Of a stretch of DNA of 64,000 bases, positions 652-56,272 are shown piece by piece. The first letter of the stretch is position 1. Every line of letters begins with the position of its first letter. The stretch spans positions 16,257 to 80,256 of the forward strand of contig JAXGNF010000001.1 of assembly GCA_040768135.1 (NCBI GenBank), written 5' to 3'. Both the position numbers and the translations under genes were made by a program. Under the pieces are notes generated by a model. That model saw only the letters and a list, made by a program, of their open reading frames with translations. It had not been told where the DNA came from and did no database searches. The stretch is from Thermoleophilia bacterium. GTDB taxonomy: Bacteria > Actinomycetota > Thermoleophilia > RBG-16-64-13.

Positions 652-1446
652 ATGGAAGATGTCGTTCCTCGGAGGTTGTCGATGGCGATGGGGTTGTTTG
701 CGGGTGCGCTGGCAGTCGTGGCCGCTCTATTCGCGTTCATGAGCGGTTGTGGGGAGTCGGATGCCCTTGGTACCGGGGGCTCCGGAGAAGGCGACTCCAC
801 GAGCGTCGCGCTTCCCCCGATCGATCTGGCCGCTCCAAGTCACTTTCGTACTGCCTCTTTTGCTCTGGGCTGATTCTGGGGTTCGGAGGCCCAGTTCGGG
901 TGCCTCGAAGGAGTCATAAGGACTCGGGTCGGTTACACGGGAGGGACGAAAGAGGGGCCGACTTATTACAATCTCGGCGATCACTCCGAGACCGTGCAAC
1001 TTGATTTCGACCCCGACGTGATTACGTACGAGAGGCTTCTGGAGGTGTTCTTCGCGAGCCACGACGCTTCGCGTCGTAGTTCATCCCGTCAGTATATGTC
1101 GGCCATCTTCTTCCATAGTGTCGAGCAGGAACACGCTGCTCAGGCAGCCAAGGCGAAGGAGGAGCTGAAGCTGGGGAGGGCCGTGGAGACCCAGATCCTG
1201 AGGGCCGAGGTCTTCTATCCGGCCGAGGATTACCACCAGAAGTACGCGCTTCAAGCCGACTCGGCCCTTCTGGCCGAGTACCGAAGGATGTACCCGGATT
1301 TTGCCGGTCTAGTCGATTCCACCTCGGCCACTCGGGTCAACGCATACCTGTATGGGTGTGGAGACGCGGAGCAGTTGCGGCGTGAGCTGGACAGCCTGGG
1401 TTTGTCGGCGGAGGGCCGGAAGCGGCTGGTCGACAGGGTGGAGTAG
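652..1446 (+). CDS. msrA: Peptide methionine sulfoxide reductase MsrA, lipoprotein-type signal peptide, with an in-frame TGA (871-873) at the catalytic Cys position (candidate selenocysteine)
   Basis: ORFs 652..873 and 994..1446 are in the same frame and separated only by TGA. Read-through gives ...TASFALG-U-FWGSEAQF...GYTGG...PTYY...DFDP..ITYE.LLEVF...AEDYHQKY, matching the MsrA GCFWG/GYTGG/AEDYHQ motifs. The N-terminus has RR, a hydrophobic stretch and an FMSGC lipobox. Confidence 0.6.
886..906 (+). promoter_or_regulatory. SECIS-like stem-loop 12 nt downstream of the in-frame TGA (gaggc cc agttcg gg u gcctc)
   Basis: 5-bp GC-rich stem (886-890/902-906), bulged U at 901, 2 further bp, and an apical loop containing GUU. 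The position relative to the UGA is typical of bacterial SECIS elements. Confidence 0.4.
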
Positions 1447-1821: not shown

Positions 1822-3102
1822 TTGCTGAGAGATTATTATTTGGTCATCTATCTGGTGGTGGCCTTACGGCTCCTGCTGCCGCTACTCATCCCTCGCTGGC
1901 CCCTGTTCGGGATTCTCGTCTGCATGTTCGTGGACTCCGCCGACCAAAGTATCATGCAGGTCTTTGGGTTCGATCCGCCTTGGTATCAGGGTTACGACAA
2001 GGCTCTCGACATCTATTATCTGTCCATCGCCTATTTGGCCACCCTGCGAAACTGGGAGAATGTAGGGGCCTTTCAGATCAGCAGGGTTCTCTATTACCTC
2101 CGCCTCGTGGGAGTGCTTGCGTTCGAGTTGAGCGGAGCGCGCTGGCTGTTGTTCGCTTTTCCTAACGCCTTCGAGGCGTTTTTCGTCTATTACGAGATTG
2201 TTCGGCGTCGCGGGAGTCCGATGCTGCTTACCCGCAACGCTGCGGTGGTCGTGGTGGCTGTTATCTGGTTCCTATTCAAGTTGCCGCATGAGTGGTGGGT
2301 GCATATCGCCGGCCTCGACGCGACTGATTTCATCAAGACGAAGATCTTGGGTGCGACACTCAACACCCCGTTCTGGCGAGCGGTCGTTCAGGCTCCGGCA
2401 GTCACGGGAGCGCTCACCTTCATGGCGGCGCTAGCGGCTTTCAGCCTTTGGCAGTTCAAGAAGAGGAGAAGACGGAAGGCGGCCGAGGCCGAAGCTGCCG
2501 GTGAGGCTCCGAAGAGGCAGAGACGTAGACCGGCCCATTGGGCGCGGCCGGCTAGGGTGGCCGGGTTGCTTCACGCTGCGGATCCCTTGTATCAAGCGCA
2601 GCGGAGGCTTCGCATAGTCATTATGCGGGGCCATACCGCGACTACGGTGCGGCCGTGGGTACTTATAGAGAAGACCGTCTTGGTCAGCATCGTGTCGGTG
2701 GTATTTCAGCAAATTCTGCCCGGTCTGAAAGCCAACGGGATCCAGACCGCCCTGTTCATCGCACTCGCGATAATTGCCACCGACTTCCTGTTACGTTGGG
2801 TGCTTAGGCGCTTCGGAGTACCCAGCTCGCCGGGCGTGGACCTCCTCGTCACTGCGTTACTGAACTTCTCGTTTGTGCTGATCTTCCAGTTGGTCGTTCC
2901 GCTGATCCCACCGCAGTACACCCTGCGCTCGGCCCTCACGTTCGCAGGGTTGATCACCCTGTTCGTCACTCTATACGATCACTATAGGCCCATTTATGAC
3001 GTGCGGGCCCATGATCCAAGCAGGCAGCGAGACGATGTGGGTAGGCGTCTTCTGGAATCGCCGTTGAGCCGGAGCGGGGCCGGAGACCCGCAAGGGTCGT
3101 GA
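1822..3102 (+). CDS. Hypothetical polytopic membrane protein with a polybasic internal segment (KKRRRRKAAEAEAAGEAPKRQRRRP)
   Basis: Long ORF with multiple hydrophobic segments and no recognisable family motif. Confidence 0.45.
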   Translation: MLRDYYLVIYLVVALRLLLPLLIPRWPLFGILVCMFVDSADQSIMQVFGFDPPWYQGYDKALDIYYLSIAYLATLRNWENVGAFQISRVLYYLRLVGVLAFELSGARWLLFAFPNAFEAFFVYYEIVRRRGSPMLLTRNAAVVVVAVIWFLFKLPHEWWVHIAGLDATDFIKTKILGATLNTPFWRAVVQAPAVTGALTFMAALAAFSLWQFKKRRRRKAAEAEAAGEAPKRQRRRPAHWARPARVAGLLHAADPLYQAQRRLRIVIMRGHTATTVRPWVLIEKTVLVSIVSVVFQQILPGLKANGIQTALFIALAIIATDFLLRWVLRRFGVPSSPGVDLLVTALLNFSFVLIFQLVVPLIPPQYTLRSALTFAGLITLFVTLYDHYRPIYDVRAHDPSRQRDDVGRRLLESPLSRSGAGDPQGS

Positions 3103-3105
3103 GAG

Positions 3106-3753
3106 ATGGATCTCGTTCTGGATTATCTCGTCAATGCGAACGTGTATGTCGCCGACCTCGTCGAGACGCTCGGCCCGTGGGCCTATGTGGTGATCTTCAT
3201 GACCATATTCGCGGAGATCGGCCTGGTGGTGCTCACCATCCTGCCCGGAGAGTCGCTTCTGTTAGCAACCGGGACATTGGCCGGTCTCGGTATTCTTAAT
3301 ATCGGTGTTCTGGCCCCCCTACTGTTCGTTGCGGCCTTCGCCGGGATCCTCTCCAATTTCTTCATTGGACGTTTTGCAGGGCGTTGGTTTGTGAGCAGGC
3401 CTCGGCGTCTGCTGGATCCGGAGAACATAGCCCGAGTGCGACGCTTCTACGAAAGATACGGATCTCTTACCATTGCGGTGTCGCGCTTTTTGCCCGTCTT
3501 ACGGACTTTGGCGCCCTTCGTGGCCGGATTAGTTCGCATGGAGGTCCACCGCGTGGCCCCGTTTGCCGCTATTGCTGCCGGTGCTTGGATAGGGGTCTTC
3601 TTAGGCTCGGGCTATGGGTTGGGGACGGCCGACTGGGTGAGGAGGTATTTGGTCGTGGTGCTCGTCGGTATTGTCATCGTGTCCGGAATACCAGGTATCG
3701 GGGGCTACGTAGTGGAGCGCCGGCGGCGGAAGGGCGGGCGCGGGGGTAGTTGA
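3106..3753 (+). CDS. DedA/SNARE-associated family membrane protein
   Basis: Carries the ...VVLTILPGESLLLATG... signature and multiple TM segments; size ~215 aa. Confidence 0.7.
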   Translation: MDLVLDYLVNANVYVADLVETLGPWAYVVIFMTIFAEIGLVVLTILPGESLLLATGTLAGLGILNIGVLAPLLFVAAFAGILSNFFIGRFAGRWFVSRPRRLLDPENIARVRRFYERYGSLTIAVSRFLPVLRTLAPFVAGLVRMEVHRVAPFAAIAAGAWIGVFLGSGYGLGTADWVRRYLVVVLVGIVIVSGIPGIGGYVVERRRRKGGRGGS

Positions 3754-23139: not shown

Positions 23140-24984
23140 TTAGACCAGAAGCTCTGCGACCAGGTCATCCAGGCCGTACTTCTTCAGGGTGTCGGGTAGC
23201 GGTATGCCGGTCTCGACATCCCAGCCCATCTGCTCGTAGTAGTTGTCGCGAATCGTATCCCAGTGCTCTCGTATACCAATGCCCGCAGCGGGTCCGTCGA
23301 GTGGGGTGGAGCTGTAGCGGACCGACGGCGCCTCCATCTCCTTGTTGAGGCCGTGACGGAAGTTGAACATCCGCATCAGGTTGACGATGCGAAGGCCCAT
23401 CTCTTTCGCGCTCTCTATGTCCCAATCCCAGCCGGTAACGGCGTTGATGATCTCCAAGGTGAGAGCCAGACTGGGCGTGCAAAGGCGGCAGATACCTAGA
23501 GAATCCTCGACATTGCGGCCTCCGTTGAGCCAGGCGTTCATGGTTGACATAGCAATTGGGTCGAACCGGTCTTTCACTCGTTCCAAGCCTAGGTTGGGCG
23601 GGGTGAACAAATGACCGCCGGTTTCGATGGTGCCGGTATTGGAAAGGCAGGTATCGATGAATTCCGACCAGTGGCCCCGGTGGTCGTGACCGCGGGGAGT
23701 GGCTCCCTTCATGGTGTAGACGCAACAGTCCTGGGCTTCGCCCCCGACCCTCTCGGCCGACCGCTTGGTGCCCTCGGCAAAGAGATCACCGCAGCCTTCC
23801 CGGTGGGCGATCTTTCTCAAGATGGAGGCGACCGCTTCAGAGTCACCCCAGTTCATCTCGATCCCGTCAAAGTCGTCTGTGGTCAAGTAGCCTTTTTCGT
23901 AGCACTCCATGAACCAGGCGATCATGTAGCCTGATTCGTTGATGTCGAGCCCCAGCCGGTCGACGAGATTGCAGAGATAGAACGTGTCGGCCGGATCAGT
24001 CATGCCGATCAGGGGTCCCATCTCGGCCGTTCCCTCGTATTCGGGTTCTTCGCCGACGAAACCGGCGTACCGCCCCTCCGGCAACTGCGAGATACGGCAA
24101 TGGGCGATAGAGCACATCCAACAGGCAGAGGGTTTGTTCGGAAAATGCTCGCGCATGTATTCTGGTGTGTACTTGTTGCCCTCGGGCCAGACATTGGTTG
24201 TGTAATTGCGCATGGGGACTGCGCCCATGGCGGCGAGCGGGACCAATCCAGCGTTGGTGCCGAACTTGACCAGACCGGGGTCGACTTCCTCGGTGAACTT
24301 GGCCAGCTCCTTCGCCTTGGCCACCAGGAGCTCGGGATTCTCCACCCGGGGCTTCACATTGCCTTTGACTGCCGAGAAGCACTTGAGCTTCTTCGAACCC
24401 ATGACCGCGCCTACCCCGTTATGAGCGGCCACGTGGCCACGGTCGCCTACGATCGCTGAAAAACGAACGAGATGTTCGCCTGCGGGACCAATACTGTAGA
24501 CGCTGCACCTACCTTTGGTCTCAGCTTTGACGGCATCTTCGGTCTCCCAGGTGTCCAGTCCTACCAGATGCTCGGCGTCAAGCAGATGGACCGTGCCGTC
24601 CTGGATGTGAAGGCGCGTCCACTTGTCTGCAGCTCCCTGGACGATGACGCCGTCAATGCCGTTCGTCCGCATGAAAGCGCCCATGAACCCGTTGGCCTGA
24701 GCCGTCCCGGCCATGCCGGTGCAGGCCCCGAGAGTGGTGACGGAGAAGGTCCCCGATCCACAAACCCTTGTCCCTGCCAGAGGGCCGGTGAAGAAGGTCA
24801 GCCGGTTTTCAGGATCCGACCACTTCACGCCGGCGGGAACCTCGTCCCAGAGATATTTGGTGGCGAGGCCGGTGCCGCCTACGTACTTAGCGGTAGTCTC
24901 TCCATCGATGATTTCTTCGGTGATCTCGCCGCTTCCGAGGTCGACCCGCAGAATGCGTAATGTGTATGGTCCTTCTCCTGACAT
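23140..24984 (-). CDS. Aldehyde:ferredoxin oxidoreductase family tungsten enzyme (AOR paralog 1)
   Basis: N-terminal ...ILRVDLGSGEI... AOR domain with conserved AOR core motifs. The ATG at 24984 has an AAGGAG RBS. Confidence 0.85.
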   Translation of the reverse strand: MSGEGPYTLRILRVDLGSGEITEEIIDGETTAKYVGGTGLATKYLWDEVPAGVKWSDPENRLTFFTGPLAGTRVCGSGTFSVTTLGACTGMAGTAQANGFMGAFMRTNGIDGVIVQGAADKWTRLHIQDGTVHLLDAEHLVGLDTWETEDAVKAETKGRCSVYSIGPAGEHLVRFSAIVGDRGHVAAHNGVGAVMGSKKLKCFSAVKGNVKPRVENPELLVAKAKELAKFTEEVDPGLVKFGTNAGLVPLAAMGAVPMRNYTTNVWPEGNKYTPEYMREHFPNKPSACWMCSIAHCRISQLPEGRYAGFVGEEPEYEGTAEMGPLIGMTDPADTFYLCNLVDRLGLDINESGYMIAWFMECYEKGYLTTDDFDGIEMNWGDSEAVASILRKIAHREGCGDLFAEGTKRSAERVGGEAQDCCVYTMKGATPRGHDHRGHWSEFIDTCLSNTGTIETGGHLFTPPNLGLERVKDRFDPIAMSTMNAWLNGGRNVEDSLGICRLCTPSLALTLEIINAVTGWDWDIESAKEMGLRIVNLMRMFNFRHGLNKEMEAPSVRYSSTPLDGPAAGIGIREHWDTIRDNYYEQMGWDVETGIPLPDTLKKYGLDDLVAELLV

Positions 24985-25037
24985 GGGAACGTTCTCCTTC
25001 TGTAGTCCCACAGTAGTCCGACACAGGCAGCCTTTCG

Positions 25038-26753: not shown

Positions 26754-28649
26754 CTATTCTGTTGATAGGACGTCTTCTAGACCGAGGGCGGTGATGCGCT
26801 CTTTCGCTATGGCCCCCGTCTCAAAATCGAAACCCATGGCTTCATAGAACTGTCGTTTGAGACCCTCGGAGTCGATAGTCACGCCCTTGAGGGTTCCTGT
26901 TTGCAATGGAGGGTTGCCCCTAGCGCGTTCGGGCAGCTTGAAGTCGCCGGGTGTGAAGCCCTCGCGTAAGTTGAAGGCGTGGAGGAGGGTGGTGATCCTG
27001 TAGCCCGTCTCCACTATCTCGTCGTAGTCGAGGCCCCAGCCGGTAATCGCGTTCATGCATCCCAGAAAATCCAGGGGCATGCTGTCGATGCCGAAGAGGC
27101 AGGCGCCCGATGTATTGACCCAGTGCTGCCACCCTGCCAGTATGGCATGGTACTTGCCCTTGTCGGTGGGATCATACGGGTCCATTTGGAAGGGGACTCC
27201 CATGCCCGCATACGCCCTTTCGTTGACTCCGCCGTGCTCCGCGAAGGCCGTGCCGCCCCGGGTATGTCTGCCGGGCGTCGAGTCAGAGATATAGGTGGCC
27301 CCCCAACCGGGGAAACAGCGGGGATCATGCATGGCAAGCATCTCGCCTCCCGCGTGCATGGCGAACTGTTCCGCACCCCCACCGATCTTCTCGGCCGCCC
27401 ACTTGGCGCCGTCGGCAAGGATATCGCCGATGCCCTCACGTCGACACATCTTTTCGAGCACTCCCACATGGGCGTCGCTGTTGCCCCAAGTGAGCTCCAG
27501 ACCGTCGGTATCGGCCCTGGTGATGATGCCGTTCTCGTAGCATTCGATGGCGAACGCCACGGTGGCGCCTGCCGAGATGGTGTCGAGCCCGTAGAGGTTG
27601 CAAAGCTCGTTCGCCCAGATGAGCGACTCCATGTCATCGTTGAGACACATGGGCCCAAAGGCAGCCAGCGTCTCGTATTCAGGCTTATGTGTGTCGCTCA
27701 CCGGATATCGACCGTCTTCGACGGTGAGGACTGAGCCACAGGCCACCGGACAGGTCGCACACGCATACTTCTTTTTTACATACTTGGCCATGCCGTTCCA
27801 GGCCACCGAGTCCCACCTGGGCTCGGGGAAGTCTTCGATGTTGTTGCCGCTCCAGTTCTTAATAGGAACGTCGTGATCGTGCATGTGCATGATCATGGCT
27901 CCCGGAGTGCCACCGTGAGTGAGACCGAAGAACATCCCCGAAGGGTTCTCCTTAGTCTCTCGGATCATCTCCTTCATCATGGCTTTGATGGCCGGTCTAT
28001 CGAGGACTTCAGGACGCATGCTTCCTGTGCAGGCGACCGCTTTGAGATTCTTGGAGCCCATGACCGCGCCCAGGCCGGACCGGGCTGCCGCTCTACCCCG
28101 GTCGTTCATCACGGCGGCGATCCGAGCCAGGCGCTCCCCGCCCGGACCGATGACCGCCACCTTCAAGCTCCTATCGCCGTTCTCCTCCCGGATCATCTCC
28201 TCGGCGACGGCGGTGTCCTTACCCCAGAGGTGGCGGGCGTCTTTGAGCTCCGCGGTGCCATCTCGAATAAGCAAGTAGACCGGCTGCTCGGCCTTTCCTT
28301 CGAAGAAGACCAAGTCATAGCCGCCCGCTTTGAAGGCGTTGGCGAAATCGCCCCCGCAGTTCGCGTCGCCCCAGTAGCCGGTCAGGGGCGACTTACCCAT
28401 GGTGGCAAAGCGGCAGGTAGAGTAGACGCCGGAAAGGGTCAATGGGCCTGTGCCTATGCCAAAGATGTTGTCTGGTCCGAGGGGGTCTACACCGGGCCTC
28501 ATGCGCTCCATGATGACCCGGGCGCCGATGCCGTAGCCGCCGACGAACCGCCGGGCGGTCTCCTCCGAGAGCTCCTCTTCGTGGAAGGTCCTGTTTGTCA
28601 GGTCGACGAAAAGGAGCCTCCCCATATATCCGTATCCAGCTCGTGCCAT
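26754..28649 (-). CDS. Aldehyde:ferredoxin oxidoreductase family tungsten enzyme (AOR paralog 2)
   Basis: 631 aa with an AOR N- and C-domain pattern paralogous to 23140..24984. Confidence 0.85.
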   Translation of the reverse strand: MARAGYGYMGRLLFVDLTNRTFHEEELSEETARRFVGGYGIGARVIMERMRPGVDPLGPDNIFGIGTGPLTLSGVYSTCRFATMGKSPLTGYWGDANCGGDFANAFKAGGYDLVFFEGKAEQPVYLLIRDGTAELKDARHLWGKDTAVAEEMIREENGDRSLKVAVIGPGGERLARIAAVMNDRGRAAARSGLGAVMGSKNLKAVACTGSMRPEVLDRPAIKAMMKEMIRETKENPSGMFFGLTHGGTPGAMIMHMHDHDVPIKNWSGNNIEDFPEPRWDSVAWNGMAKYVKKKYACATCPVACGSVLTVEDGRYPVSDTHKPEYETLAAFGPMCLNDDMESLIWANELCNLYGLDTISAGATVAFAIECYENGIITRADTDGLELTWGNSDAHVGVLEKMCRREGIGDILADGAKWAAEKIGGGAEQFAMHAGGEMLAMHDPRCFPGWGATYISDSTPGRHTRGGTAFAEHGGVNERAYAGMGVPFQMDPYDPTDKGKYHAILAGWQHWVNTSGACLFGIDSMPLDFLGCMNAITGWGLDYDEIVETGYRITTLLHAFNLREGFTPGDFKLPERARGNPPLQTGTLKGVTIDSEGLKRQFYEAMGFDFETGAIAKERITALGLEDVLSTE

Positions 28650-30794: not shown

Positions 30795-31274
30795 TCACTT
30801 GTTCCACCGCGACTTGTCCACTGTATAGGCCTCGGCCTCCACTTCGGGGGGCGAGGCTTCCCAGAAGAAGCGGATCGTATCTATTTTGAGCGCGCCGCTA
30901 TCATCGAGCGAGAGCTCGTATAACGGCAGATAGTCTTTCTCCACCTTCACCAGATCGGTGGACGTCTCATAGATCGTGGCCCGAACGAAGGCCACCGCCA
31001 CCATCCGTTTCTCGTCGACGAAGATGTCGTGGACCACGAATCGCTCGTAGTCCTCTGGGTGGCCCGTCAGCATGTTATAGAAATCCTCGCGGCTCTTGAT
31101 GGCGTTTTGAGGCCCGCCGAACAAGTACATGTAGGGGATGAAGGTGAGGTTGGGTGCAAAATACTTGTCCATGGCGTGGACGGTCTTGGCGTCTTGGGCG
31201 CTGGCGTTGTATTCAGCGAAGTAGTCCTTCATCCACTGAACGATCTCGTCATATGTCGGCTTCATGCTCTTCAT
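30795..31274 (-). CDS. NTF2-like (SnoaL/ketosteroid-isomerase-like fold) small protein, paralog B
   Basis: 159 aa, PTYDEIVQWMKDYF...; clear paralog of the adjacent 31320..31832 gene. Confidence 0.45.
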   Translation of the reverse strand: MKSMKPTYDEIVQWMKDYFAEYNASAQDAKTVHAMDKYFAPNLTFIPYMYLFGGPQNAIKSREDFYNMLTGHPEDYERFVVHDIFVDEKRMVAVAFVRATIYETSTDLVKVEKDYLPLYELSLDDSGALKIDTIRFFWEASPPEVEAEAYTVDKSRWNK

Positions 31275-31319: not shown

Positions 31320-31832
31320 TTATGCGTACTTACGTTGAGGTCCCTCCGGGTTGTTCTTCCAATCGCGTTCAAACACGTCGTCGATCTCGAGTGCTCCGGC
31401 CGGCAGGATCTCCCAGAAAAAGTCGAGACGCTCGATCTTGATGGTCCCGTCTTCCTCCACCAGTGGATAGCGGCACAGATAGCGCTTGGTAAGCAGCAAC
31501 TCCTGGGTGTCGCGGTCGATGATGTCGGTCCTTATTTGGGCTACGAAGACCAGCCGCCGCTCGTCGATGACCAGATGTTCGGGTGTCAACCGCTCAATTC
31601 CCGAGGGATGCGAGGTCAGCACCTTGTACCAGTTGTCTCGACCCTCTACCTTGCCCACGTAGGCGATGAAAGGGTTGTACACGACATCTTTCGAGAAATA
31701 CTTGTCCATACGGTGGATCTCGGCTGGGTCCTGGCCGTATTTGTTGAACTCGTCGAAGTATTCGTCGATCCAGGCGGCAAGTTCGTCATAAGTCGGTTGC
31801 ACGGTTGCGTCCTCCCGGTTGCGGGATGCCAT
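31320..31832 (-). CDS. NTF2-like small protein, paralog A
   Basis: 170 aa, PTYDELAAWIDEYF...; start overlaps the stop of the upstream cupin gene by 1 nt. Confidence 0.45.
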   Translation of the reverse strand: MASRNREDATVQPTYDELAAWIDEYFDEFNKYGQDPAEIHRMDKYFSKDVVYNPFIAYVGKVEGRDNWYKVLTSHPSGIERLTPEHLVIDERRLVFVAQIRTDIIDRDTQELLLTKRYLCRYPLVEEDGTIKIERLDFFWEILPAGALEIDDVFERDWKNNPEGPQRKYA

Positions 31833-32311
31833 CAGAAGTTCTTTACGTAGTTCGGATCGTTGGCCGCTTCGAACATGAAGATAGGGGTGTCGATCCTCTT
31901 GATCGTGATGGGACAGTGCTCCACTCCTTTGGGGACGAAGATGAGGCAGGTCTTGGTGACCGTGTGTTTCTCTCCGCCTATGTTGACCTCGATCTCTCCG
32001 CCCAGATCGCGTGGATAATTGCGGTTGGTACCCCCGAAGCCGATGACTTCATCGAAGTCGTGGGTGTGCGGTATTTCGATGTCGACCGGCTTGCCTCCAG
32101 GCAGCCCCCACAGTATCTCGCACCCCACGAAGAGCGGACATCCGGGAACGATGGAGTCCATGATCCCCAAGAGCATCGTCCTGTCGAGGATCTTTCCCTC
32201 CTTGGCCTGGTCTTCCATGGCCTTGACCATGGCCTCAGGCATGGGAGGCATCCGGTCCTCGGTAAGGAAGTACTTTCCGTACTTGGATTCGGTCCTCTCC
32301 GGTTCGGTCAT
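31832..32311 (-). CDS. Cupin-fold metal-binding protein, paralog B
   Basis: Cupin motif 1 PHTHDFDEVIGFGG and motif 2 PKGVEHCP. Confidence 0.55.
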   Translation of the reverse strand: MTEPERTESKYGKYFLTEDRMPPMPEAMVKAMEDQAKEGKILDRTMLLGIMDSIVPGCPLFVGCEILWGLPGGKPVDIEIPHTHDFDEVIGFGGTNRNYPRDLGGEIEVNIGGEKHTVTKTCLIFVPKGVEHCPITIKRIDTPIFMFEAANDPNYVKNF

Positions 32312-32775
32312 CTTGTTTCTCCTTGTTCCATTTTTTCCCGATGGCCACCCGGGTCGGCTTCGGCAAGGCTGCCGGCTCCGATCATCACCGTCATCTCCAG
32401 ATGGGGTCTCGTGAACCTTTTCCAGGTTAGCGGCCCGTGTTTCACTCCTTTGGGGACAAAGACCGAGGAGGTCTTGTTGATGATGAGGGCCTTGCCGTCG
32501 ACCATGAATTCGATCTCCGCTCCCAAGTCTTCTTGATCTTCGGGGTCGATGCCCACATGCATCACGATCTCGTCGTAGTCATGGACGTGTTCCCCGATGT
32601 GTGGATTGGGATCCGGCATCGCTTTTATCCAGCCGACCTCCACGTACATGTTCGTTCCGGGGACGAGGTTGTTGCTCATAAGGGTCATTGCCGGTATACG
32701 TCCTGCCACCTCGAAGGCTGGGATCACCTCATAGGCCGGGCTGCGCACGAAATATCTCTCAGCGTCGAGTGCCAT
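32308..32775 (-). CDS. Cupin-fold metal-binding protein, paralog A
   Basis: EHVHDYDEIVMHVG and PKGVKHGP; 4-nt overlap with paralog B. Confidence 0.55.
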   Translation of the reverse strand: MALDAERYFVRSPAYEVIPAFEVAGRIPAMTLMSNNLVPGTNMYVEVGWIKAMPDPNPHIGEHVHDYDEIVMHVGIDPEDQEDLGAEIEFMVDGKALIINKTSSVFVPKGVKHGPLTWKRFTRPHLEMTVMIGAGSLAEADPGGHREKMEQGETR

Positions 32776-34204
32776 AGTGCTCCGTCCTTTCTAGTAGCTC
32801 GCCCGTCTTCCCGGGGTGGTTCAGTTGCTGCCCGTCACAGGCGACTACATATTTCTGCATGAGTCGCAGCGCTTTTGCCGGTTCACTCTGGGCCAAGAGG
32901 CCCAAGGCGAAAAGCACGTAATCAGCGTCGAGCATGAACTGGGGTGCCTTGGGCTTGAGTAGCAGGGGGTACGCTGTATCGAACACCGCCCCTGCCAACA
33001 CCTCGGCCGGGTCGGCCGAAAACGACACCGGTCCACCGGCCCCCACCACCCATCGTAACTGGGTGAGGTCTTTGCCTCTTTGTACAACGACCTCCCCGTC
33101 GGGGGTCACGATGTGTTTCAGCGAACCTACGTGTCTATCGACCGCGGAGCGTACGGCCACCTTGGCAAGGAGTAGATGGCAGGCGGTCTGCTCATCCCCG
33201 CTGGGGACGCTGTTTTCCCGACACATGACGGCCACCAAGTCGTCGAAGTTGTCGGGTAATTGCTCCATCTCCGCTATCGTCTGCAGGGTATCGAGGTTAT
33301 GGAACAGACCCAAGTCGCCCTCCACAGTGCGCTTGGCGTACGGCTCGGCCAAGCCGAGGAAACGTACGGTACCGGAGGTGGGTGCCCCCGTGGCGACGGA
33401 GTAGACATCAGTTGTGGCCCCACCAACATCGACCAGAAGCAGTTCACCTATGCCCTGGTGGCCGTCGGTGCCGTCGGCCAGAAGCTTCGCGGCTTCGAGC
33501 ACTGCGGCCGGGGTAGGCATGATGACATCGGCTATGAGGCTCCGGGCCCGGCTGATGCCCTTCGCTTCAGTGATCCGGGCGATGAAGAGATCTCTGATCT
33601 TATGGTTGGCCGCGTCAACTTCCAAGATGCCGATCTCAGGCATGACGTTGGTAGTGAAGAGGACGTTTTTGCCCGAGCCGGCGAATAAGGCCTCGACGTC
33701 GTCATAGGCCGACTTGTTGCCGGCGACGATGATGTTGGTGATGCGGGAGCCCGCTCGAGCCAGCAACGTTGCGTTGTGAGTAATGACTTTCTTATTGCCG
33801 CCGTCGGTGCCCCCCGTAAGGAGGACTATGTCGGGAGCGATCTCTTCGATCTCTCGCAGTTCGCGTTCTGACAATTCGAAAGAGTACGAAGCCACTATCT
33901 TGGCCCCGGCTCCTAGAGCGGCTCTGCGACCGGCCTCGGTGGTGTAATCAGGCACCAAACCTACGCACACGACCCGGAGTCCGCCGGCCGCGCTACTGCA
34001 AGCCACGGTCTGTCGTCGTTCGGTCTCTCCGAAAGGAACTTTCTCGGCGAGGAGCGCGAAAGCCTCTTCGAGGGCGATCGTCACATCTCGGTCGACACTG
34101 GAAGGCACCTGCACCCGACCGATGAGCTCCTCGGCCTCCAGGTCGAATGCCACCAATTTGGTGAAAGTACTGCCGAAATCGACGAAGAGCCGTGTGCTTG
34201 TCAC
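32759..34204 (-). CDS. glmL: MutL/GlmL family protein (glutamate mutase accessory ASKHA-type ATPase, putative reactivase/chaperone)
   Basis: N-terminal VDFGSTFTKLVAFD signature; ~480 aa; sits immediately downstream of glmS. Confidence 0.65.
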   Translation of the reverse strand: MTSTRLFVDFGSTFTKLVAFDLEAEELIGRVQVPSSVDRDVTIALEEAFALLAEKVPFGETERRQTVACSSAAGGLRVVCVGLVPDYTTEAGRRAALGAGAKIVASYSFELSERELREIEEIAPDIVLLTGGTDGGNKKVITHNATLLARAGSRITNIIVAGNKSAYDDVEALFAGSGKNVLFTTNVMPEIGILEVDAANHKIRDLFIARITEAKGISRARSLIADVIMPTPAAVLEAAKLLADGTDGHQGIGELLLVDVGGATTDVYSVATGAPTSGTVRFLGLAEPYAKRTVEGDLGLFHNLDTLQTIAEMEQLPDNFDDLVAVMCRENSVPSGDEQTACHLLLAKVAVRSAVDRHVGSLKHIVTPDGEVVVQRGKDLTQLRWVVGAGGPVSFSADPAEVLAGAVFDTAYPLLLKPKAPQFMLDADYVLFALGLLAQSEPAKALRLMQKYVVACDGQQLNHPGKTGELLERTEHYGTRR

Positions 34205-34707: not shown

Positions 34708-35619
34708 TCAAACCGCGACCTCACAGGGGAGACCGCGGGCTTCTACGATATTGCAGGCGGCCTGCATGAATGCCGGTGACGGCGTTTCGGCGGTCGCCAG
34801 TTCATAGTCGAGTCCCAGCATGTCGTACTTCTGCTGACCATAACGGTGGTAGGGGAGGAGGTGTACCGTCGCTCGGGGAGCGTGGGTGGCCACCATCTCG
34901 GTGATATCGGAAATGGCATCGCTTGTGTCGTTGAAACCCGGGACTACCGGTATGCGCACTACCAGGGATACGTCGCTCGCTGCCACCTCGTCAAAATTAC
35001 GTAGGATGGCTTCGTTTGAGCAGCCGGCTTGGATCCGGTGGATTTTTGGATCGATGTGTTTGATGTCGAAGTAGAAGAGATCAGTGTAGGGGATGATCCG
35101 CCGCAGTGCTTCAAGGCTACCTTGTCCCGAGGTGTCGACGCATGTGTGGAAACCCGCCTCGCGACACCTCTTGAGGAGAGCCACGGCGAATTCGGGCTGC
35201 ATAAGGACCTCTCCACCCGACAAGGTGATACCTCCACCTGAGTCCTCATAGAAGTCGGCGTCGCGTTCGAGGACGGCGAACACCTCGGCATCCGTCATCT
35301 CCTTGCCTGTGATACGCATGGCGTCATGAGGACAGGCATCGACGCAATCCCCGCATACAGTGCAGGCGTCGCGGTCGATCACAATACCGTCTGAGCCTAC
35401 CGTGATGGCGCCCCCGGGACAGGCGGTCACACACCGATAGCACCGTTTACAGAGGGAGTCGCGGTGCATGAGTTCGGGAATGATACTCTGGGACTCTGGG
35501 TTCGAACACCACACGCAACTCAGAGGGCAGCCCTTGAAAAAAACCGTAGTCCGGATACCCGGACCATCGTCGATGCTGTACCTCTGGATGTTAAACACGA
35601 TCCCCGTCACCGTTGCCAC
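34708..35619 (-). CDS. Glycyl radical enzyme activating enzyme (radical SAM) with a two-[4Fe-4S] ferredoxin-like insert
   Basis: CPLSCVWC radical-SAM motif (CxxxCxxC variant) plus CKRCYRCVTACP and CTVCGDCVDACP clusters, the glycerol-dehydratase/BSS-type activase architecture. Confidence 0.85.
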   Translation of the reverse strand: MATVTGIVFNIQRYSIDDGPGIRTTVFFKGCPLSCVWCSNPESQSIIPELMHRDSLCKRCYRCVTACPGGAITVGSDGIVIDRDACTVCGDCVDACPHDAMRITGKEMTDAEVFAVLERDADFYEDSGGGITLSGGEVLMQPEFAVALLKRCREAGFHTCVDTSGQGSLEALRRIIPYTDLFYFDIKHIDPKIHRIQAGCSNEAILRNFDEVAASDVSLVVRIPVVPGFNDTSDAISDITEMVATHAPRATVHLLPYHRYGQQKYDMLGLDYELATAETPSPAFMQAACNIVEARGLPCEVAV

Positions 35620-35702
35620 TGCTGCTCACTCCTCGACGTCATCATGGGGGAAGCGGACGCGCCGCCCATGCGGGCGGCGCGTCCGCGTAGAATAATCCCG
35701 TA

Positions 35703-38258
35703 CTAACCTACCTCATGCATGGTCCGCTCAACGATCTCGTCCTGCAGCTCGGGCGGTAGGTCGACGAAGTAAGCGCTGTAGCCCCCTACACGGACCAGTA
35801 GGTCCTTATGGGCTGCCGGTTCTTTGCGCGCCTCCACGAGTTCTTCGACACTGTGGATGTTGAACTGGATGTGCCAGCCCCCACGTTTGGTAAAAGTCTT
35901 GATGAGAGAAGACACTTTGCTCAACTTCTCCGGACTGTTAAGCACGGCCTTGGAGAACTTCATGTTGTGGGCTACTCCGGCGCACTCGTACGGGGTCGGG
36001 TACTTGGTGGCCGAGAGGATCAGGGCGGTTGGGCCGTTGACGTCGCCGCCCGGCATGGCTGAGGTGCCGCCATCGTAGATGGGGGTACCGGCATAGCGCC
36101 CGTTGGGCATCGCACCCACGGCTTTTCCCTGTGTCACATGGCCGGCCGCCGCACCCTTGAACAACATGGGTTTCTCGCCGGTGATGGGGTCGGGACGGCT
36201 TTGCAGGATCCCCTGAGTATCCCGGGATAGCCGGACGTACCAGTCGTCCACATAGTCGTCATCGTTGCCGTATTTGGGGGCTTTGAGGCACATCTGACGG
36301 ATATCCTCATGGCCCTCCCAGTTGGCGTCCATGGCGTCCAACAACTGGGCCATGGTGATCTTTTTCTCGTCGAACACCAGGTATTGGACGGCCGCCATGT
36401 AGTCGGCGCAGTCGCAAATGCCTTTGTCGCCCACCCAGGAGGCCTTGCCGATAGGGTAGCGGCAGCCGCCTTCGCGTGAGGCCAACCCGGCCGGGATACA
36501 GTCACGGAAGAGCATGCCGGCGCGTAACCCGCTCATCGGGCTGTTGGCGATCTCGCTGGTCCACCAGATGAAGTAGTGGTCACGCATCTTTTCCGCGAAG
36601 TAATCCTCCTGCTTGAGAAAGGCTTCGTAGAGCTGTTCGATGGATGTGAACGTTCTCGGGTCGCCGGTGTGCAGGCCCACTTGCTTGCCCGTGCGGGGGT
36701 CGAAACCGTCGTGGAGCGTGACTTCCATGACTTTGGCCTGAACAAGGTTGAAGGCTCCAGCCATGTGTTCGGCGCATTCCAAATGGTAGCCGAGGCACCC
36801 GCTTGCACTCCAGTTGCAGGCATCCTCTATGGGCACACCTCGGTCAAGGTAGCGGCGGGTCCCCAACTCGTCGTTCAAGAAGGCAGGATTACCCCCACCG
36901 AACTCGCGGTTGCATTCGAGCGCATGGATGATGAAGTTCTCGTCCTGCTCGTCGTGATAGCGGACGTAAACGGCCGGCTCCGATAGGTGGACCTGAGCCA
37001 TAACCTCGAGGATCATCCAAGAGAGCTCATTGGTGAGATCGTTGCCGTCTTTGTCTCGGCCGCATAGAGTGACGTTGGGCAGTTGGCTACCGGGAGCGGC
37101 GCGGTGCTCGCGCTTGATGGTGACCAAGTTCTCGACTTCGCGGATCTTCAGCCACATGGCGCCTATCAGCTCAGCTGCCTGCTGGCGGGTAAGGTTCCCG
37201 CTCTCGATATCGGCCTTGTAGTACGGGTACCAGAATTGGTCGATCCGTCCGATCCCCACCTCAGCTCTTTCGGGGCTCTCTTTCCAGGCGGCCAGATGCA
37301 TGAAGCGCACCGATTGGACGGCTTCCCAGAAGTTGCGAGGCGGCTCAGCGGGTACATGTTCACATACGTCCGCGATCTTCTCGAGCTCGGCCTTGCGGAC
37401 CGGGTCAGTCGTTGTGGCGGCCATCTCACGGGCCAGAGCGGCATGTCGCTTGGCAAAATTGATTACGGCCTCGAACATGATGACGATGGACTTGAGTAGG
37501 TACCACTTGCGGAGGGCGTTGACGCTCGAGCGGTCCTCCAACGCGCCTTCAGCCTTCATCTTCTCCATCTCGGCCTTGGCCAGACCGATGACGTGCCTGA
37601 AGCCGAGCCTCAACACCTCGCCGGAAAGCATGATCACGCCGCCGCCCATAGCGCCGTAACCCTGGAAGAGGCCCCGGTCGGGGTTCTCACGCACGCCGCG
37701 GCCCTCGAGGATCATCGCGTGGTCGAAGAGGAGGTCGAAGTGCTCTTTGCCGAGCTCTTCTTCAAGGGCCACGTTCACATAGTTGACCGGGTTCATGTGT
37801 TCGACCCAGTATTCGGCGTCGGCTGTAAGCTTCTCCAGATCTTCGGGGTCGATGACCGTCGAGGAGATATCACTCAGCTTGCGGTCGAAACGGCCACTTT
37901 TGCACATGGCCAAGATCTCACGGGGCTTCACAGCGCAAAGGGTGTTGTTGCCGCGGATGAACTTCGTTGACGAGCCTACGATGATCTCGTCGTCGCGAAT
38001 CAGGATGGGACAGTTCTCCATCCTCTTCTCGAACGCCTTGGCCCAGCGGAAGTCGACCGGCATCTGCTCGGTCTCTTTCCAGGATTCGGTGAACAGCAGT
38101 GTGTCGTCTACATAAACCTGTGGAGCGGCGTCTTCCCACTCCTTCTTCAGCTTATTGAGACGATCGGTCATGACGACTACCGATTTGATCTCTTTTGCGG
38201 CGTCCGGGTGGATGGTGCCTTGGATCACGGGGGTGATGTTCGAGGATTCCACTGCCAT
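35703..38258 (-). CDS. Glycyl radical enzyme (pyruvate formate-lyase superfamily) of unknown specificity
   Basis: 851 aa with a C-terminal glycyl-radical motif RVGGYSAYFVDL...Q.EIVERT and a Cys loop ...EDACNWSASGCLGY.... Confidence 0.9.
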   Translation of the reverse strand: MAVESSNITPVIQGTIHPDAAKEIKSVVVMTDRLNKLKKEWEDAAPQVYVDDTLLFTESWKETEQMPVDFRWAKAFEKRMENCPILIRDDEIIVGSSTKFIRGNNTLCAVKPREILAMCKSGRFDRKLSDISSTVIDPEDLEKLTADAEYWVEHMNPVNYVNVALEEELGKEHFDLLFDHAMILEGRGVRENPDRGLFQGYGAMGGGVIMLSGEVLRLGFRHVIGLAKAEMEKMKAEGALEDRSSVNALRKWYLLKSIVIMFEAVINFAKRHAALAREMAATTTDPVRKAELEKIADVCEHVPAEPPRNFWEAVQSVRFMHLAAWKESPERAEVGIGRIDQFWYPYYKADIESGNLTRQQAAELIGAMWLKIREVENLVTIKREHRAAPGSQLPNVTLCGRDKDGNDLTNELSWMILEVMAQVHLSEPAVYVRYHDEQDENFIIHALECNREFGGGNPAFLNDELGTRRYLDRGVPIEDACNWSASGCLGYHLECAEHMAGAFNLVQAKVMEVTLHDGFDPRTGKQVGLHTGDPRTFTSIEQLYEAFLKQEDYFAEKMRDHYFIWWTSEIANSPMSGLRAGMLFRDCIPAGLASREGGCRYPIGKASWVGDKGICDCADYMAAVQYLVFDEKKITMAQLLDAMDANWEGHEDIRQMCLKAPKYGNDDDYVDDWYVRLSRDTQGILQSRPDPITGEKPMLFKGAAAGHVTQGKAVGAMPNGRYAGTPIYDGGTSAMPGGDVNGPTALILSATKYPTPYECAGVAHNMKFSKAVLNSPEKLSKVSSLIKTFTKRGGWHIQFNIHSVEELVEARKEPAAHKDLLVRVGGYSAYFVDLPPELQDEIVERTMHEVG

Positions 38259-52764: not shown

Positions 52765-54225
52765 CTAATCCGGTAGGCCCTTCAACCGCCCCCGACTGAT
52801 ACCCCAGAAGTCTTCGATGGAGGCGTAGTAATCGAGCGTACGCCCCTCGGCCTTCTCCCTTTCGGCCACCTTCTGCCGATGGAAGTCCTTGATCTCTTCA
52901 GGAATGGGCAGGTTCCCGAAATCGAGGTAGCGGCAGGCTCCTGTGTTGTCGCGGATGCCGAGCACTTTGTCCTGAGCATGGATATTGATCGACATGGGCG
53001 AGTCGAGTACGCCTGCTTCCACCGCCTTGACGGTGCCGACGGCGAGATCCCCATCGCCGAGCTCCAAGACTCTGTCAAGGATGGCGTTCACTTCGGCTGT
53101 GGTCACCGCCTCTTCCTCGTCGATGATGGCGTTGTCGATGTCGAGCTGCTGCCCTTCCATCACCCCGAGGATCCACTTGGCCGCCAGATAGCTCTGGCGG
53201 TGAGAGTCCTGCGTGGGTACGCCCGCGGCCTCATCCACAGTCTTGACTGAGACGGCGTCACAGCCTCCAAGGGCAGCCGTTACCGCCGTATAACCGATGT
53301 AACCGAAAGCGCTCCCCATCTCTTGCGGGAAGGGGAACAGGGGGGACTGGCTTCCAAAGACGCCGGGGATGATGACGTCGGTGTGGCCGAACTTATCGAG
53401 GTACTCCCGCATCAGCTTGGGCAGCGTGCGCATATCGGCAAGGTCTTGGAATAGGTTCCCCTGCATGTTCACCTGCGGGAAGACGCTTTTCACCCCTTGT
53501 GTGGCCGAAACCAGCGCTTCGATGATCTGAGTGGCCATGTTGACGCTCATGGGGATTACGAAGTTGGGCAACCAACCGTGGCAATCGGTGGTGATGATGA
53601 CTCCGTGGTCGGCGTAGTAGCCGATAAGCCGCCCCGTGTACTGGGCCGTCTCAATGCACTCTTCGACGGTGGCCTTCTTGTCGTAGCCCGCGATCCATCC
53701 GAAGAAACTGTTGGGGAACGCGTTCATGCCTGAGGCGAAGGCGATCTCGGCTACCATGCTCTGCCCGATACGGGAGGAGCGTGGGTCGAGGGCTCCGTCG
53801 CACGCTTCGACCACTCTTCGGTTGGTCTTGACCCCATGATTGATGATCGGGTAACCATTGAGAGCAGGTTTGCCGGTCCTGATGCTCTCCTGGAGGCCCT
53901 TCTCGACCTTGTCCAGCTGTAGGTTGCGGGTGTAGCTATCGGTTGTGAACGGGAGCAAATGGATGTCGAGCTCGTTCAAAGAGCGGATGAGCGCGATCTC
54001 GTCCTCGACCAGAGGAGTGCCCTGCCGGGGGAAGAGCGAGATACGGCCCTCGTCATGGTACTTCTGCAGGATCTTGTGGAAACGTTTGCTGTCGGGCAGA
54101 GCCTTCTGATACGCGACGGCCTCTTCGAGGTCCACCTCTTTGCCGGTCGGCCAGACGGCAAGCACTTCTTTGCGCTTCTCCATGAACACATCTTCGTCGA
54201 TGCGTTGCTGCTTGACCTTGATCAA
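52765..54225 (-). CDS. glmE: Glutamate mutase epsilon subunit (methylaspartate mutase E chain)
   Basis: EVLAVWPTGKEVDLEEAV... and a C-terminal FGNLPIPEEIKDFHRQKVAEREKAEGR... closely parallel clostridial GlmE (recalled from memory); 486 aa. Confidence 0.7.
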   Translation of the reverse strand: MIKVKQQRIDEDVFMEKRKEVLAVWPTGKEVDLEEAVAYQKALPDSKRFHKILQKYHDEGRISLFPRQGTPLVEDEIALIRSLNELDIHLLPFTTDSYTRNLQLDKVEKGLQESIRTGKPALNGYPIINHGVKTNRRVVEACDGALDPRSSRIGQSMVAEIAFASGMNAFPNSFFGWIAGYDKKATVEECIETAQYTGRLIGYYADHGVIITTDCHGWLPNFVIPMSVNMATQIIEALVSATQGVKSVFPQVNMQGNLFQDLADMRTLPKLMREYLDKFGHTDVIIPGVFGSQSPLFPFPQEMGSAFGYIGYTAVTAALGGCDAVSVKTVDEAAGVPTQDSHRQSYLAAKWILGVMEGQQLDIDNAIIDEEEAVTTAEVNAILDRVLELGDGDLAVGTVKAVEAGVLDSPMSINIHAQDKVLGIRDNTGACRYLDFGNLPIPEEIKDFHRQKVAEREKAEGRTLDYYASIEDFWGISRGRLKGLPD

Positions 54226-54379: not shown

Positions 54380-56272
54380 TCAGTCGTAGATGTAGAGTTC
54401 TTCGACCCGTTCGGGGGTCGGTATTCCTTCGTGATCCCAGCCCATCAACGTGTAGTAGTACCTCTTGGCTTTCTCCATCTTGTCTCGATCGAGTCCGGCA
54501 ACGAACGGCCCGTCGGTCTTGTCTTCGTAGAATCGGGGAGGGAGCCGGTCGTCATCGGCGGTCAGACCCTGTTTGAGGTTAAACAGCCGGGCGGCGGTCA
54601 GGATGCGTTCGGCGGTACGGATAAGCTCGGCCGAACCAACGTCCCAGCCGGCGACTGCGTTCAATATCTCGGCAGGTTGCTTATAGGTGACACCCACATA
54701 CGCCAGGTGACAGGTGAGTAGCACGTCGTTTAGAAACTCTCGGATATGACCTACCTTGAACAAGGCGACCTTACGGGGGCCGATGTCGAGGGCCGGAACC
54801 GTGTCGTAGAAGCCGAGTTGGTGGAAGTCCTTGATACCATGCTCGGCGGCTAGGATGTCGTCGTGGACATTCGCGCAGTGGTCGGCTCCATTGGGGTTGA
54901 CCATGAATCCGAGGGCGAACGCAGGGTTGAGACGCGGCTCGTGCATGCCCGGATGGACGCCTTTGACCTCGATGGAGATTCTGTCGGATCCGCGGCCGAT
55001 CTTCTTGGCTGCCTCGGCTGAACCAAGGGATAGGAGGGCGCCGACACCTTCTCGTCGTCCGATGAGTTCCACGCATTTGACGAGGGCTGCTCCATTGCCG
55101 AAGCGGAGTTCTAGGCCCTCCGTGTCCTCGAGGGTAAGAAGGCCCTTTTCAAAACACTCCATGGCGAACGAGATAGTGTTGCCGGTCGAAATCACGTCGA
55201 GAGAATAGGCATTACACATCTCGTTGGCTTTGACCATAGCCTCCGGGTCGTCTACCTCTACGTTGGTCCCCAATGCGCACATCGCCTCGTACTCGGGGCC
55301 CCCATAATCGGGGTCGACGAAGAAAGGAGCGCCGGATTGCAGCCGTTTCTTGCAACGTAGCGGACATCCGAAGCAGCCCTCCTGAGGAAGGCCCATCCTC
55401 TCCTTGAGGGCCCCGCCGTGGACGTTCTTGACCCCGTCGGCGAACGGAGCCCCTCTCCAGTTGTGCACGGGCAGGTGCCCGACGGCTTCCATGCCCTCCA
55501 TCTCGGGCCCCCCGGTGCCGAACTCAGGGAGGACCTGCTGTATCCAAAAATGACTCCAGTGTTCTTTGGTCAGCCAGTTGTTGAAGGCTCTGACGGCTTC
55601 CCGGTCGAACACACGGGCCCGGCCGGTGCCACGCACGCCGACGGCTTTGAGATTCTTTGATCCCATGACTGCGCCTAGGCCGCCCCGCCCCGCAGCATCG
55701 AAGGGCCCATGCATGATGCAGGCGAAGGGCACGAGGTTTTCTCCGCCCGGCCCGATCATGGCCACGCGTACCCGGGGGTCGCTCAGTTCTTCACGTATGG
55801 CCGCTTGGGTGTCCTTCGTAAGTAGGCCCCACAAAGCGGCTGCGTCGCGGATGGTGACATCGCCGTCCTTGATAGAGAGATATACGGGTCTCTCCGCCCT
55901 GCCTTCCACGATGAGAACGTCGTAGCCGGCCTTTTTGAGCTCCACTCCCCAGTGTTCACCGGCCTGGCAGAGGGCGATTCCGCCGCTTAATGGTGACTTG
56001 GCGCCCACCCCATGACGTCCGGTGGCGTAGACTGCCGTCCCGGTGACCGGGCTGAGTGCGAACACCAGTTTGTTTTCAGGACCCAGTGCGTCCGCCCCGG
56101 CCGGCACCTCGGTGAGCAGTATTTGGGTGATCAGCCCCGAGCCGCCCAGCCATTTGCGGTAGTAGCGCTCGTCTCTTTCTTCAGTGGTAATCGAGCCGGT
56201 GGTTAGATCCACCCGCAGGATCCTACAGGTCATGCCGCCCCAGGGCTGTTCGCCTGCTTTGTTGTCACTCAT
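54380..56272 (-). CDS. Aldehyde:ferredoxin oxidoreductase family tungsten enzyme (AOR paralog 3)
   Basis: 630 aa with ...CRILRVDLTTGSITTEE... and the conserved AOR core. Confidence 0.85.
   Translation of the reverse strand: MSDNKAGEQPWGGMTCRILRVDLTTGSITTEERDERYYRKWLGGSGLITQILLTEVPAGADALGPENKLVFALSPVTGTAVYATGRHGVGAKSPLSGGIALCQAGEHWGVELKKAGYDVLIVEGRAERPVYLSIKDGDVTIRDAAALWGLLTKDTQAAIREELSDPRVRVAMIGPGGENLVPFACIMHGPFDAAGRGGLGAVMGSKNLKAVGVRGTGRARVFDREAVRAFNNWLTKEHWSHFWIQQVLPEFGTGGPEMEGMEAVGHLPVHNWRGAPFADGVKNVHGGALKERMGLPQEGCFGCPLRCKKRLQSGAPFFVDPDYGGPEYEAMCALGTNVEVDDPEAMVKANEMCNAYSLDVISTGNTISFAMECFEKGLLTLEDTEGLELRFGNGAALVKCVELIGRREGVGALLSLGSAEAAKKIGRGSDRISIEVKGVHPGMHEPRLNPAFALGFMVNPNGADHCANVHDDILAAEHGIKDFHQLGFYDTVPALDIGPRKVALFKVGHIREFLNDVLLTCHLAYVGVTYKQPAEILNAVAGWDVGSAELIRTAERILTAARLFNLKQGLTADDDRLPPRFYEDKTDGPFVAGLDRDKMEKAKRYYYTLMGWDHEGIPTPERVEELYIYD

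Follow-up and report, generated by a model that had tools for sequence, protein, structure and literature searches.

We analysed a window of 64,000 nucleotides (nt) from a Thermoleophilia bacterium (assembly GCA_040768135.1, contig JAXGNF010000001.1, forward strand 16,257-80,256), in which positions 652-1446 carry a gene for the methionine sulfoxide reductase MsrA with a single in-frame TGA. All coordinates are window positions, and protein residues are counted from the ATG at 652. The gene has the following features:

652-1446, + strand: msrA coding sequence, 264 codons including one predicted selenocysteine (Sec) codon; stop TAG 1444-1446; start probably ATG 652.
652-750, + strand: predicted signal peptide with lipobox; n-region with RR, h-region MAMGLFAGALAVVAALFAF, lipobox FMSG-C33 with the Cys codon at 748-750.
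751-852, + strand: Gly/Ser/Asp-rich linker, then a conserved PPID..AP motif (814-825) just ahead of the catalytic domain.
853-1257, + strand: PMSR catalytic domain, residues 68-202 (Pfam match).
871-873, + strand: TGA predicted to be read as selenocysteine (U74), in place of the catalytic Cys of GCFWG.
886-906, + strand: hairpin of the selenocysteine insertion sequence (SECIS) type within the coding sequence; stem GAGGCCC/GG(U)GCCUC of 7 bp, hexaloop AGUUCG at 893-898, U901 bulged on the 3' side.
1258-1428, + strand: C-terminal helical domain of the Clostridium oremlandii MsrA type, residues 203-259, aligned without gaps to residues 145-201 of that enzyme (sequence alignment only).

Frame 1 runs from ATG 652 to TAG 1444-1446 with the TGA at 871-873 as its sole interruption; the translation in order is MEDVVPRRLSMAMGLFAGALAVVAALFAFMSGCGESD…PPIDLAAPSHFRTASFALG-TGA-FWGSEAQFGCLEGVIRTRVGYTGG, and around the TGA it reads HFRTASFALG-TGA-FWGSEAQFGCLEGVIRTRVGY. 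A first-pass annotation, made from the sequence by a model, had described two same-frame open reading frames (ORFs) split only by this TGA. The single frame stands, but position 994 is no true start of a second ORF: it is merely the first GTG after the TGA, and the frame is already open from 874. An alternative start of the gene lies at ATG 682 (M11), with GGAGG (671-675) 6 nt before it. A scan of 280-1900 for promoter and terminator consensus sequences found nothing.

When the stop is replaced, PF01625 (PMSR) matches residues 68-202 across the TGA (E 5.9e-39, 134 bits vs a cut-off of 23.7), and TIGR00401, the NCBIfam model for MsrA, scores above its cut-off (114.7 vs 108.1 bits). The top match among solved structures is the MsrA of C. 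oremlandii (CoMsrA; 4LWJ-4LWM, 4U66, 7C13), with E 3e-49. Residues 67-259 align to positions 9-201 of 4LWJ/4U66 over 193 residues without a gap, covering both domains, and the TGA aligns with position 16, the Cys of GCFWG. The active-site residues checked against CoMsrA are all identical (G73, U74, F75, W76, G77, Y105, E113, Q147, Y148, H195 and Y198). The earlier claim that the TGA occupies the catalytic Cys codon of an MsrA gene is borne out by these matches, and the alignment to a known Sec-MsrA, which had been proposed as a check, agrees with it over both domains.

CoMsrA is a natural selenoprotein (Sec16), and replacement of its Sec by Cys lowers the activity 20-fold (PMC4479559, PMC4333827); it is recycled by glutaredoxin, not thioredoxin (PMC4479559), and its unusual C-terminal helical domain is required for activity and 'conserved in some selenoprotein MsrAs' (PMC4333827). 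MsrA is among the experimentally verified bacterial selenoprotein families, with the motif GUFWG/H (PMC13188914; PMC9312934), and a Sec-MsrA was counted in Syntrophobacter fumaroxidans already in 2006 (PMC1794560). The gene at 652-1446 is a new member of this known, experimentally validated family of C. oremlandii-type Sec-MsrA, and its lineage is close to Gaiellales/Thermoleophilia metagenome-assembled genomes. The C. oremlandii type has one Cys or Sec and no resolving Cys; the window protein departs from it in having C84 and C236 in its mature part. These two residues recur within its own clade but are not general in the family, where 46 of 79 members have no Cys at all in the mature domain. 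C84 and C236 bear on the recycling step, not on membership of the MsrA family. As a separate observation, NF041383 ('VPGUxxT family thioredoxin-like (seleno)protein, type 2') partly matches residues 63-171 (E 2.5e-10, profile positions 143-228 of 287), which hints that this other selenoprotein family may contain an MsrA-like module.

Homologues were sought among 5.8 billion predicted proteins, and the codon before FWG was read in the DNA of 80 loci (L001-L080), one genome per species. This codon is TGA in 77 loci, TGC in one and TGT in one, and one locus is frameshifted; the recurrence of TGA at exactly the same codon in 77/80 loci is far beyond chance. In all 77 TGA loci the frame runs on upstream into a conserved …(I)PPIDxxAPxxxETATFALG. 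The loci come from Actinomycetota, Chloroflexota, Desulfobacterota, Nitrospirota, Bacillota, Synergistota, Acidobacteriota, Spirochaetota and Planctomycetota, and among the genomes are those of Desulfosarcina alkanivorans and D. widdelii, both with complete chromosomes, and the assembly of Desulforamulus aeronauticus DSM 10349. The closest genome loci (60-68%) belong to Gaiellales/Thermoleophilia and other Actinomycetota.

Database proteins nearest to the window product (62-73% identity for those read, and 96% for one more) have lengths of 150-190 residues and do not contain the active site. They begin MIRTRVGY… or MGCL.GVIRTRVGY…, just past the position of the TGA, as would be expected of gene callers halted by the in-frame TGA, a truncation typical of selenoprotein genes. 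Remoter matches (45-54%) are full length, with hydrophobic N-termini and FALG-C-FWG. The unrelated sequencing run SRR22941224 yielded a 979-nt contig that matches the window at 96% identity and keeps the TGA, so a sequencing error or a recent nonsense mutation is ruled out. The coding regions of this contig and of the window differ at 14 synonymous and 6 non-synonymous codons, and msrA is apparently under purifying selection. Close relatives with TGC or TGT at this codon, which the first-pass annotation had named as a sign of a pseudogene or an error, were looked for; the closest relatives (68-96% identity) all carry TGA. TGA is the commonest stop in the window, ending 25 of the 41 genes with Pfam support; the code is therefore the standard one, and recoding would be confined to this site. 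A reassignment of the code was rejected on the same count.

The hairpin at 886-906 lies where bacterial SECIS elements usually do, as the first-pass annotation had stated: its stem begins 12 nt and its loop 19 nt past the TGA (874-892). In the bacterial SECIS (bSECIS) model (Zhang & Gladyshev 2005, summarised in PMC13188914), the loop has 3-9 nt and the upper stem 4-16 bp, a G in the first two loop positions is followed by G or U, the distance from UGA to loop is 16-37 nt, and the energy is at most -7.5 kcal/mol. The window hairpin agrees with all four of these constraints, with a 6-nt loop on a 7-bp stem with one bulge, a loop that begins A-G-U, the distance of 19 nt, and an energy of -11.6 kcal/mol (884-908). 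The earlier description of a GC-rich hairpin 12 nt past the TGA with a bulged U, here placed on the 3' strand, holds; the loop is better given as AGUUCG than as GUU, and it is GGUUC in most relatives. A scan of the whole window at Rfam gathering thresholds gave no match.

Taken alone the window hairpin is unremarkable, and its significance therefore rests on the comparison with homologues. The peptide after the Sec position has no insertions or deletions, so that the 60 nt from the TGA onward align without gaps in the 77 TGA forms. RNAalifold finds one helix in this alignment, columns 16-23/27-34, with 80% of the cells paired. Three column pairs are compensatory: 18-32 (CG/AU/UA/UG/GC), 19-31 (UA/GC/GU) and 23-27 (GC/AU). 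The covariation score is 0.246 vs 0.107±0.012 in shuffled alignments; it was reached by none of 500 shuffles and lies above those of all slid registers. The compensation spans codon boundaries and even alters amino acids, as in GAC-UCC…AGU (Asp-Ser…Ser) vs GAU-GCC…CAU (Asp-Ala…His), with GAA-UCC…AUU (Glu-Ser…Ile) as a third alternative. When synonymous codons are resampled within each gene of the 77 loci, the mean energy is -12.0 kcal/mol observed vs -7.1 kcal/mol resampled (mean z -2.16), and 49 of the 77 stand at <=0.05. The majority hairpin is perfect, GACUCCC-GGUUC-GGGAGUC.

Every one of the 77 TGA forms has G24, U25 and U26 in its loop. At G24, a synonymous third position, the codon is always CGG or CAG, never CGC, CGU or CAA. 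The comparison set of Cys forms (n = 8) consists of L017, L042 and six homologues fetched separately, and none of the eight has G at column 24. Three TGC/TGT forms, L083 (301-1095), L085 (301-1080) and L086 (301-1083), have C there (CGC for CGG). The loop base G24 thus discriminates Sec from Cys forms; hairpin stability was rejected as a discriminator, some Cys forms being stably folded. From these comparisons we regard the hairpin at 886-906 as a conserved, covarying RNA element of predicted SECIS type.

The N-terminus MEDVVPRRLSMAMGLFAGALAVVAALFAFMSGC fits the Gram-positive lipoprotein signal pattern as a regular expression, with the parts MEDVVPRR, LSMAMGLFAGALAVVAALFA and FMSG-C33 and a hydrophobic stretch of 20 residues recognised by pattern match only. 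The expression is that of Sutcliffe & Harrington 2002. The best 14-residue Kyte-Doolittle window of the N-terminus is 2.56, and the lipoprotein-type signal of the first-pass annotation (RR, hydrophobic stretch, FMSGC) holds. A hydrophobic N-terminal segment is present in 65 of 78 read-through homologues and a lipobox-like motif in 35 of 78. L065 and L066 have a clear twin-arginine motif, NRRSFMKLLG, and some family members may be exported via the twin-arginine translocation (Tat) pathway. An exported location had been called uncommon for a selenoprotein; with the segment in 65/78 homologues, export would instead be typical of this family. The counts suggest that export is the common state among these Sec-MsrA proteins and that the cytoplasmic C. 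oremlandii enzyme looks like a minority type. A broader generalisation, that most C. oremlandii-type Sec-MsrA including the one in the window are extracytoplasmic by lipoprotein, Sec-pathway or Tat signals and that the studied cytoplasmic member is the exception, is one we put forward tentatively, at somewhat less than even chances. The reviews and papers on Sec-MsrA consulted here, which do not include the original 2009 CoMsrA paper, do not mention export.

Two further observations concern the N-terminal region. The (I)PPIDxxAP motif stands about 19 codons ahead of the Sec or Cys codon in the exported Sec and Cys forms of L001-L080, and CoMsrA, with its Sec at 16, is too short for it. In L031 (3266-4543), MsrB and MsrA are fused in a protein that is putatively exported or anchored in the membrane, the catalytic codon of its MsrA part being TGA.

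We conclude that 652-1446 very probably encodes a Sec-containing peptide-methionine (S)-S-oxide reductase of the two-domain C. oremlandii type, made as a precursor with a lipoprotein signal. Several observations weigh against parts of this conclusion. The window hairpin is unexceptional by itself in DNA of 59% GC (z -1.0 to -1.8 against dinucleotide shuffles); under synonymous resampling of the window alone the energy is -12.2 kcal/mol observed vs -7.3 kcal/mol (z -1.78), and 7.5% of the resamples match its stability. In the register of the family it forms only about four pairs, and the 7-bp form needs a shifted register. This register is common to L001, L002 and the window: the partner of GAGGC (GCCUC) is displaced by two positions in the 3' direction, and U901 bulges out (an A in L002); L007, L054 and L071 have related shifted solutions. 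The bulged U is a clade peculiarity and no family feature. Hairpin stability also fails to separate Sec and Cys forms cleanly, the Cys form L083 keeping a very stable hairpin of -22.6 kcal/mol (z -7.5 against synonymous resampling); L085 has z -3.6, and L086 is weaker (z -1.9). The hairpins of these three Cys forms are possibly fossil SECIS elements from recent Sec-to-Cys conversions. As to export, the call is drawn from sequence patterns alone, ATG 652 has no Shine-Dalgarno sequence, and a start at ATG 682 would deprive the signal of RR and its positively charged n-region. An extracytoplasmic reductant (CcdA/DsbD or a thioredoxin-like lipoprotein) was found neither beside msrA nor recurrently in the flanks of the 80 loci. 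As to the Sec machinery, none of selA, selB, selD or tRNA-Sec was found within the 64 kb by ARAGORN, Rfam and Pfam/NCBIfam searches of about 48 ORFs, so that Sec decoding by this organism is inferred, not shown. A scan of the window for TGA-split same-frame ORF pairs gave no second selenoprotein candidate; all that it returned was neighbouring genes or off-frame noise.

The alternative that survives best accepts the Sec-MsrA and places it in the cytoplasm, either because translation starts at M30 (ATG 739) or because the hydrophobic N-terminus is no export signal. CoMsrA sets a precedent, having Sec at position 16, no signal peptide and a cytoplasmic glutaredoxin as its reductant (PMC4479559). 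L009, L022, L035, L057 and L072 are family members without a hydrophobic N-terminus, and the missing Shine-Dalgarno sequence at ATG 652 and the lack of a nearby envelope reductant gene point the same way. We read the frame directly and found no ATG, GTG or TTG in frame between 742 and 870; the product must therefore carry the hydrophobic N-terminus or begin at M30, and ATG 739 is the sole internal start that would skip the signal. Against a cytoplasmic enzyme, the frame is open with start codons upstream of the hydrophobic segment, and segment and lipobox fit the lipoprotein pattern. The segment recurs at the same place in homologues from unrelated phyla, several of them with classical lipoboxes or twin-arginine motifs, and the adjacent MsrB bears the same kind of signal. 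Even if it stayed uncleaved, a positive n-region followed by a hydrophobic helix would put the C-terminal domain outside. A cytoplasmic location is on balance unlikely.

It is less probable still that the UGA is recoded but not as Sec, be it by near-cognate Trp, Cys or Arg insertion, under a reassigned code, or beside a relic SECIS left after loss of the Sec trait. The machinery search of the 64 kb window leaves room for such a reading, and so does L083, whose hairpin no longer serves Sec insertion, so that a hairpin alone is no proof of current function. Reassignment is excluded by TGA being the commonest stop. The loop G-U-U, which is invariant in all TGA forms and lost in 8/8 Cys forms, is retained here. 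After loss of the Sec trait a lineage would be expected to replace the TGA by a Cys codon (Zhang et al. 2006, PMC1794560), which with the apparent purifying selection on msrA argues against a relic. We consider non-Sec recoding very unlikely.

A nonsense pseudogene, or a TGA produced by sequencing or assembly error in an ordinary Cys-MsrA gene, would account for a stop that truncates the protein at codon 74 and for a window in which no Sec machinery was seen, but it is effectively refuted and keeps a negligible probability, given a TGA shared across phyla and with the independent contig, two conserved halves in frame with mostly synonymous differences, a stop that coincides with the redox-active Cys and has a covarying hairpin downstream of it, and no close relative found with TGC or TGT.

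The preferred reading, an exported Sec-MsrA, can be put as a sequence of steps. By the established bacterial mechanism, the hairpin would recruit SelB·GTP·Sec-tRNA(Sec) to the ribosome paused at the UGA, and Sec74 would be inserted instead of termination. The signal peptide, judging from its sequence and the family pattern, would direct export; C33 would be lipid-modified and signal peptidase II would cleave before it, so that the enzyme would be anchored on the outer side of the cytoplasmic membrane; the host is probably a monoderm anaerobe of a Thermoleophilia/Gaiellales-like lineage. Together with a divergently encoded exported MsrB the enzyme would reduce methionine sulfoxide in envelope proteins. 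If it follows the MsrA mechanism, Sec74 would attack Met-(S)-sulfoxide and become a selenenic acid, which might be recycled through a selenylsulfide with the non-conserved C84 or C236, or directly by an external thiol reductant.

Other features of the window are the following:

1-413, - strand: msrB, 5' part only (the gene runs off the window), divergent from msrA; TIGR00357 E 9.5e-28.
23140-25011, 26754-28649 and 54380-56272: three paralogous aldehyde:ferredoxin oxidoreductases (tungsten-type).
30795-31274, 31320-31832, 31832-32311 and 32308-32775, - strand: four consecutive ORFs of 155-170 amino acids without a Pfam match at E<=1e-5, directly 3' of the MutL-like gene.
32759-34204 and 52765-54225: MutL-like and methylaspartate mutase E-like genes.
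34708-38258: glycyl-radical enzyme with activase.

The msrB product has a lipoprotein-type signal of its own (…AFGLGAC|TDESD, TRSVLMVLVAAAAGCALAFGLGAC|TDESD), and the window thus carries a divergent pair of Msr enzymes predicted to be exported. The catalytic C-terminal part of MsrB, with its Cys or Sec, lies beyond the window edge. About 10 of the 80 loci also carry an msrB gene, and several Cys-form relatives have one directly upstream. Enoate-reductase-like flavoproteins are also encoded in the window, and its gene content suggests, circumstantially, an anaerobe, a setting where selenoproteins are common. Formate dehydrogenase was not found by Pfam/NCBIfam among the approximately 48 window ORFs, and ARAGORN found no tRNA-Sec in 60 related loci. 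Across 143 flanking ORFs Pfam shows no recurrent neighbour family. The most frequent is Oxidored_molyb/Mo-co_dimer, of sulfite-oxidase/MsrP-like fold, at a maximum of 5/143, which may be chance. A 426-amino-acid membrane protein without a Pfam family and a DedA-family gene occupy 1822-3753 in the same frame, split by TGA 3100-3102 plus one codon. This pair was rejected as a recoding site: the DedA profile starts at residue 3 of the second ORF, as in two ordinary adjacent genes. Neither of the two was found when the window neighbours were searched against 81 loci by tblastn.

What the first-pass annotation observed is confirmed, and the analysis supports its interpretation. Annotation by gene callers leaves msrA split or truncated; read as one selenoprotein gene, it is predicted to give a functional enzyme. 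Such a reading also implies the Sec-decoding trait for the organism, probably an anaerobic actinobacterium of Thermoleophilia/Gaiellales-like kind. The Sec-MsrA enzyme type is already known; the predominance of export signals in the family is less described. These signals suggest that Sec-dependent MsrA activity in anaerobes lies mostly outside the cytoplasmic membrane, and they raise the question of what reduces a selenenic acid or selenylsulfide there. If the family is indeed mostly extracytoplasmic, selenium-dependent repair of methionine sulfoxide would be widespread in the envelopes of anaerobes, paired here with an exported MsrB. The alignment is in addition a clean natural SECIS dataset: its 77 sequences combine compensatory pairs with an unvarying G-U-U loop, and it is accompanied by Cys forms whose hairpins may be fossils. 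The current understanding of Sec decoding and of MsrA chemistry is unchanged.

Among known systems the closest is CoMsrA of C. oremlandii (Alkaliphilus oremlandii OhILAs), which shares the FALG-U-FWG site, the checked residues Y, E, Q, Y, H and Y, the two domains and a Sec encoded by an in-frame UGA. It differs in being a cytoplasmic protein of 209 residues, with Sec16, no signal peptide, recycling by (seleno)glutaredoxin and no Cys at all, whereas the window protein is extended by 66 N-terminal residues (signal, lipobox, linker and PPID motif) and contains C84 and C236. The hairpin resembles bacterial SECIS elements, whose prototype is that of Escherichia coli fdhF, in lying inside the coding sequence just 3' of the UGA and in its small loop with a G followed by U; its sequence is unrelated to that of fdhF, and its bulged U is on the 3' strand and clade-specific.

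Extracytoplasmic Msr systems are known from Streptococcus pneumoniae, with the lipoprotein MsrAB2 and its partners Etrx1/2 and CcdA (PMC3914529), and from Neisseria and Haemophilus, with periplasmic MsrAB (PMC9404787). As predicted here, a signal or lipoprotein sequence puts those Msr enzymes outside the membrane, and MsrA and MsrB are encoded together. Those systems are Cys-based, usually MsrA-MsrB fusions, and encoded with thioredoxin-like and CcdA/DsbD partners, whereas the window has a predicted Sec enzyme, separate divergent msrA and msrB genes, and no electron-supply genes found nearby. Periplasmic formate dehydrogenase and [NiFeSe] hydrogenase are exported selenoproteins, respiratory enzymes that are exported folded via Tat. 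Predicted DsbA/DsbG-like and Prx-like thiol:disulfide oxidoreductase selenoproteins have also been listed (PMC1794560). These other exported selenoproteins indicate that Sec proteins can cross the cytoplasmic membrane, but they belong to enzyme families different from MsrA.

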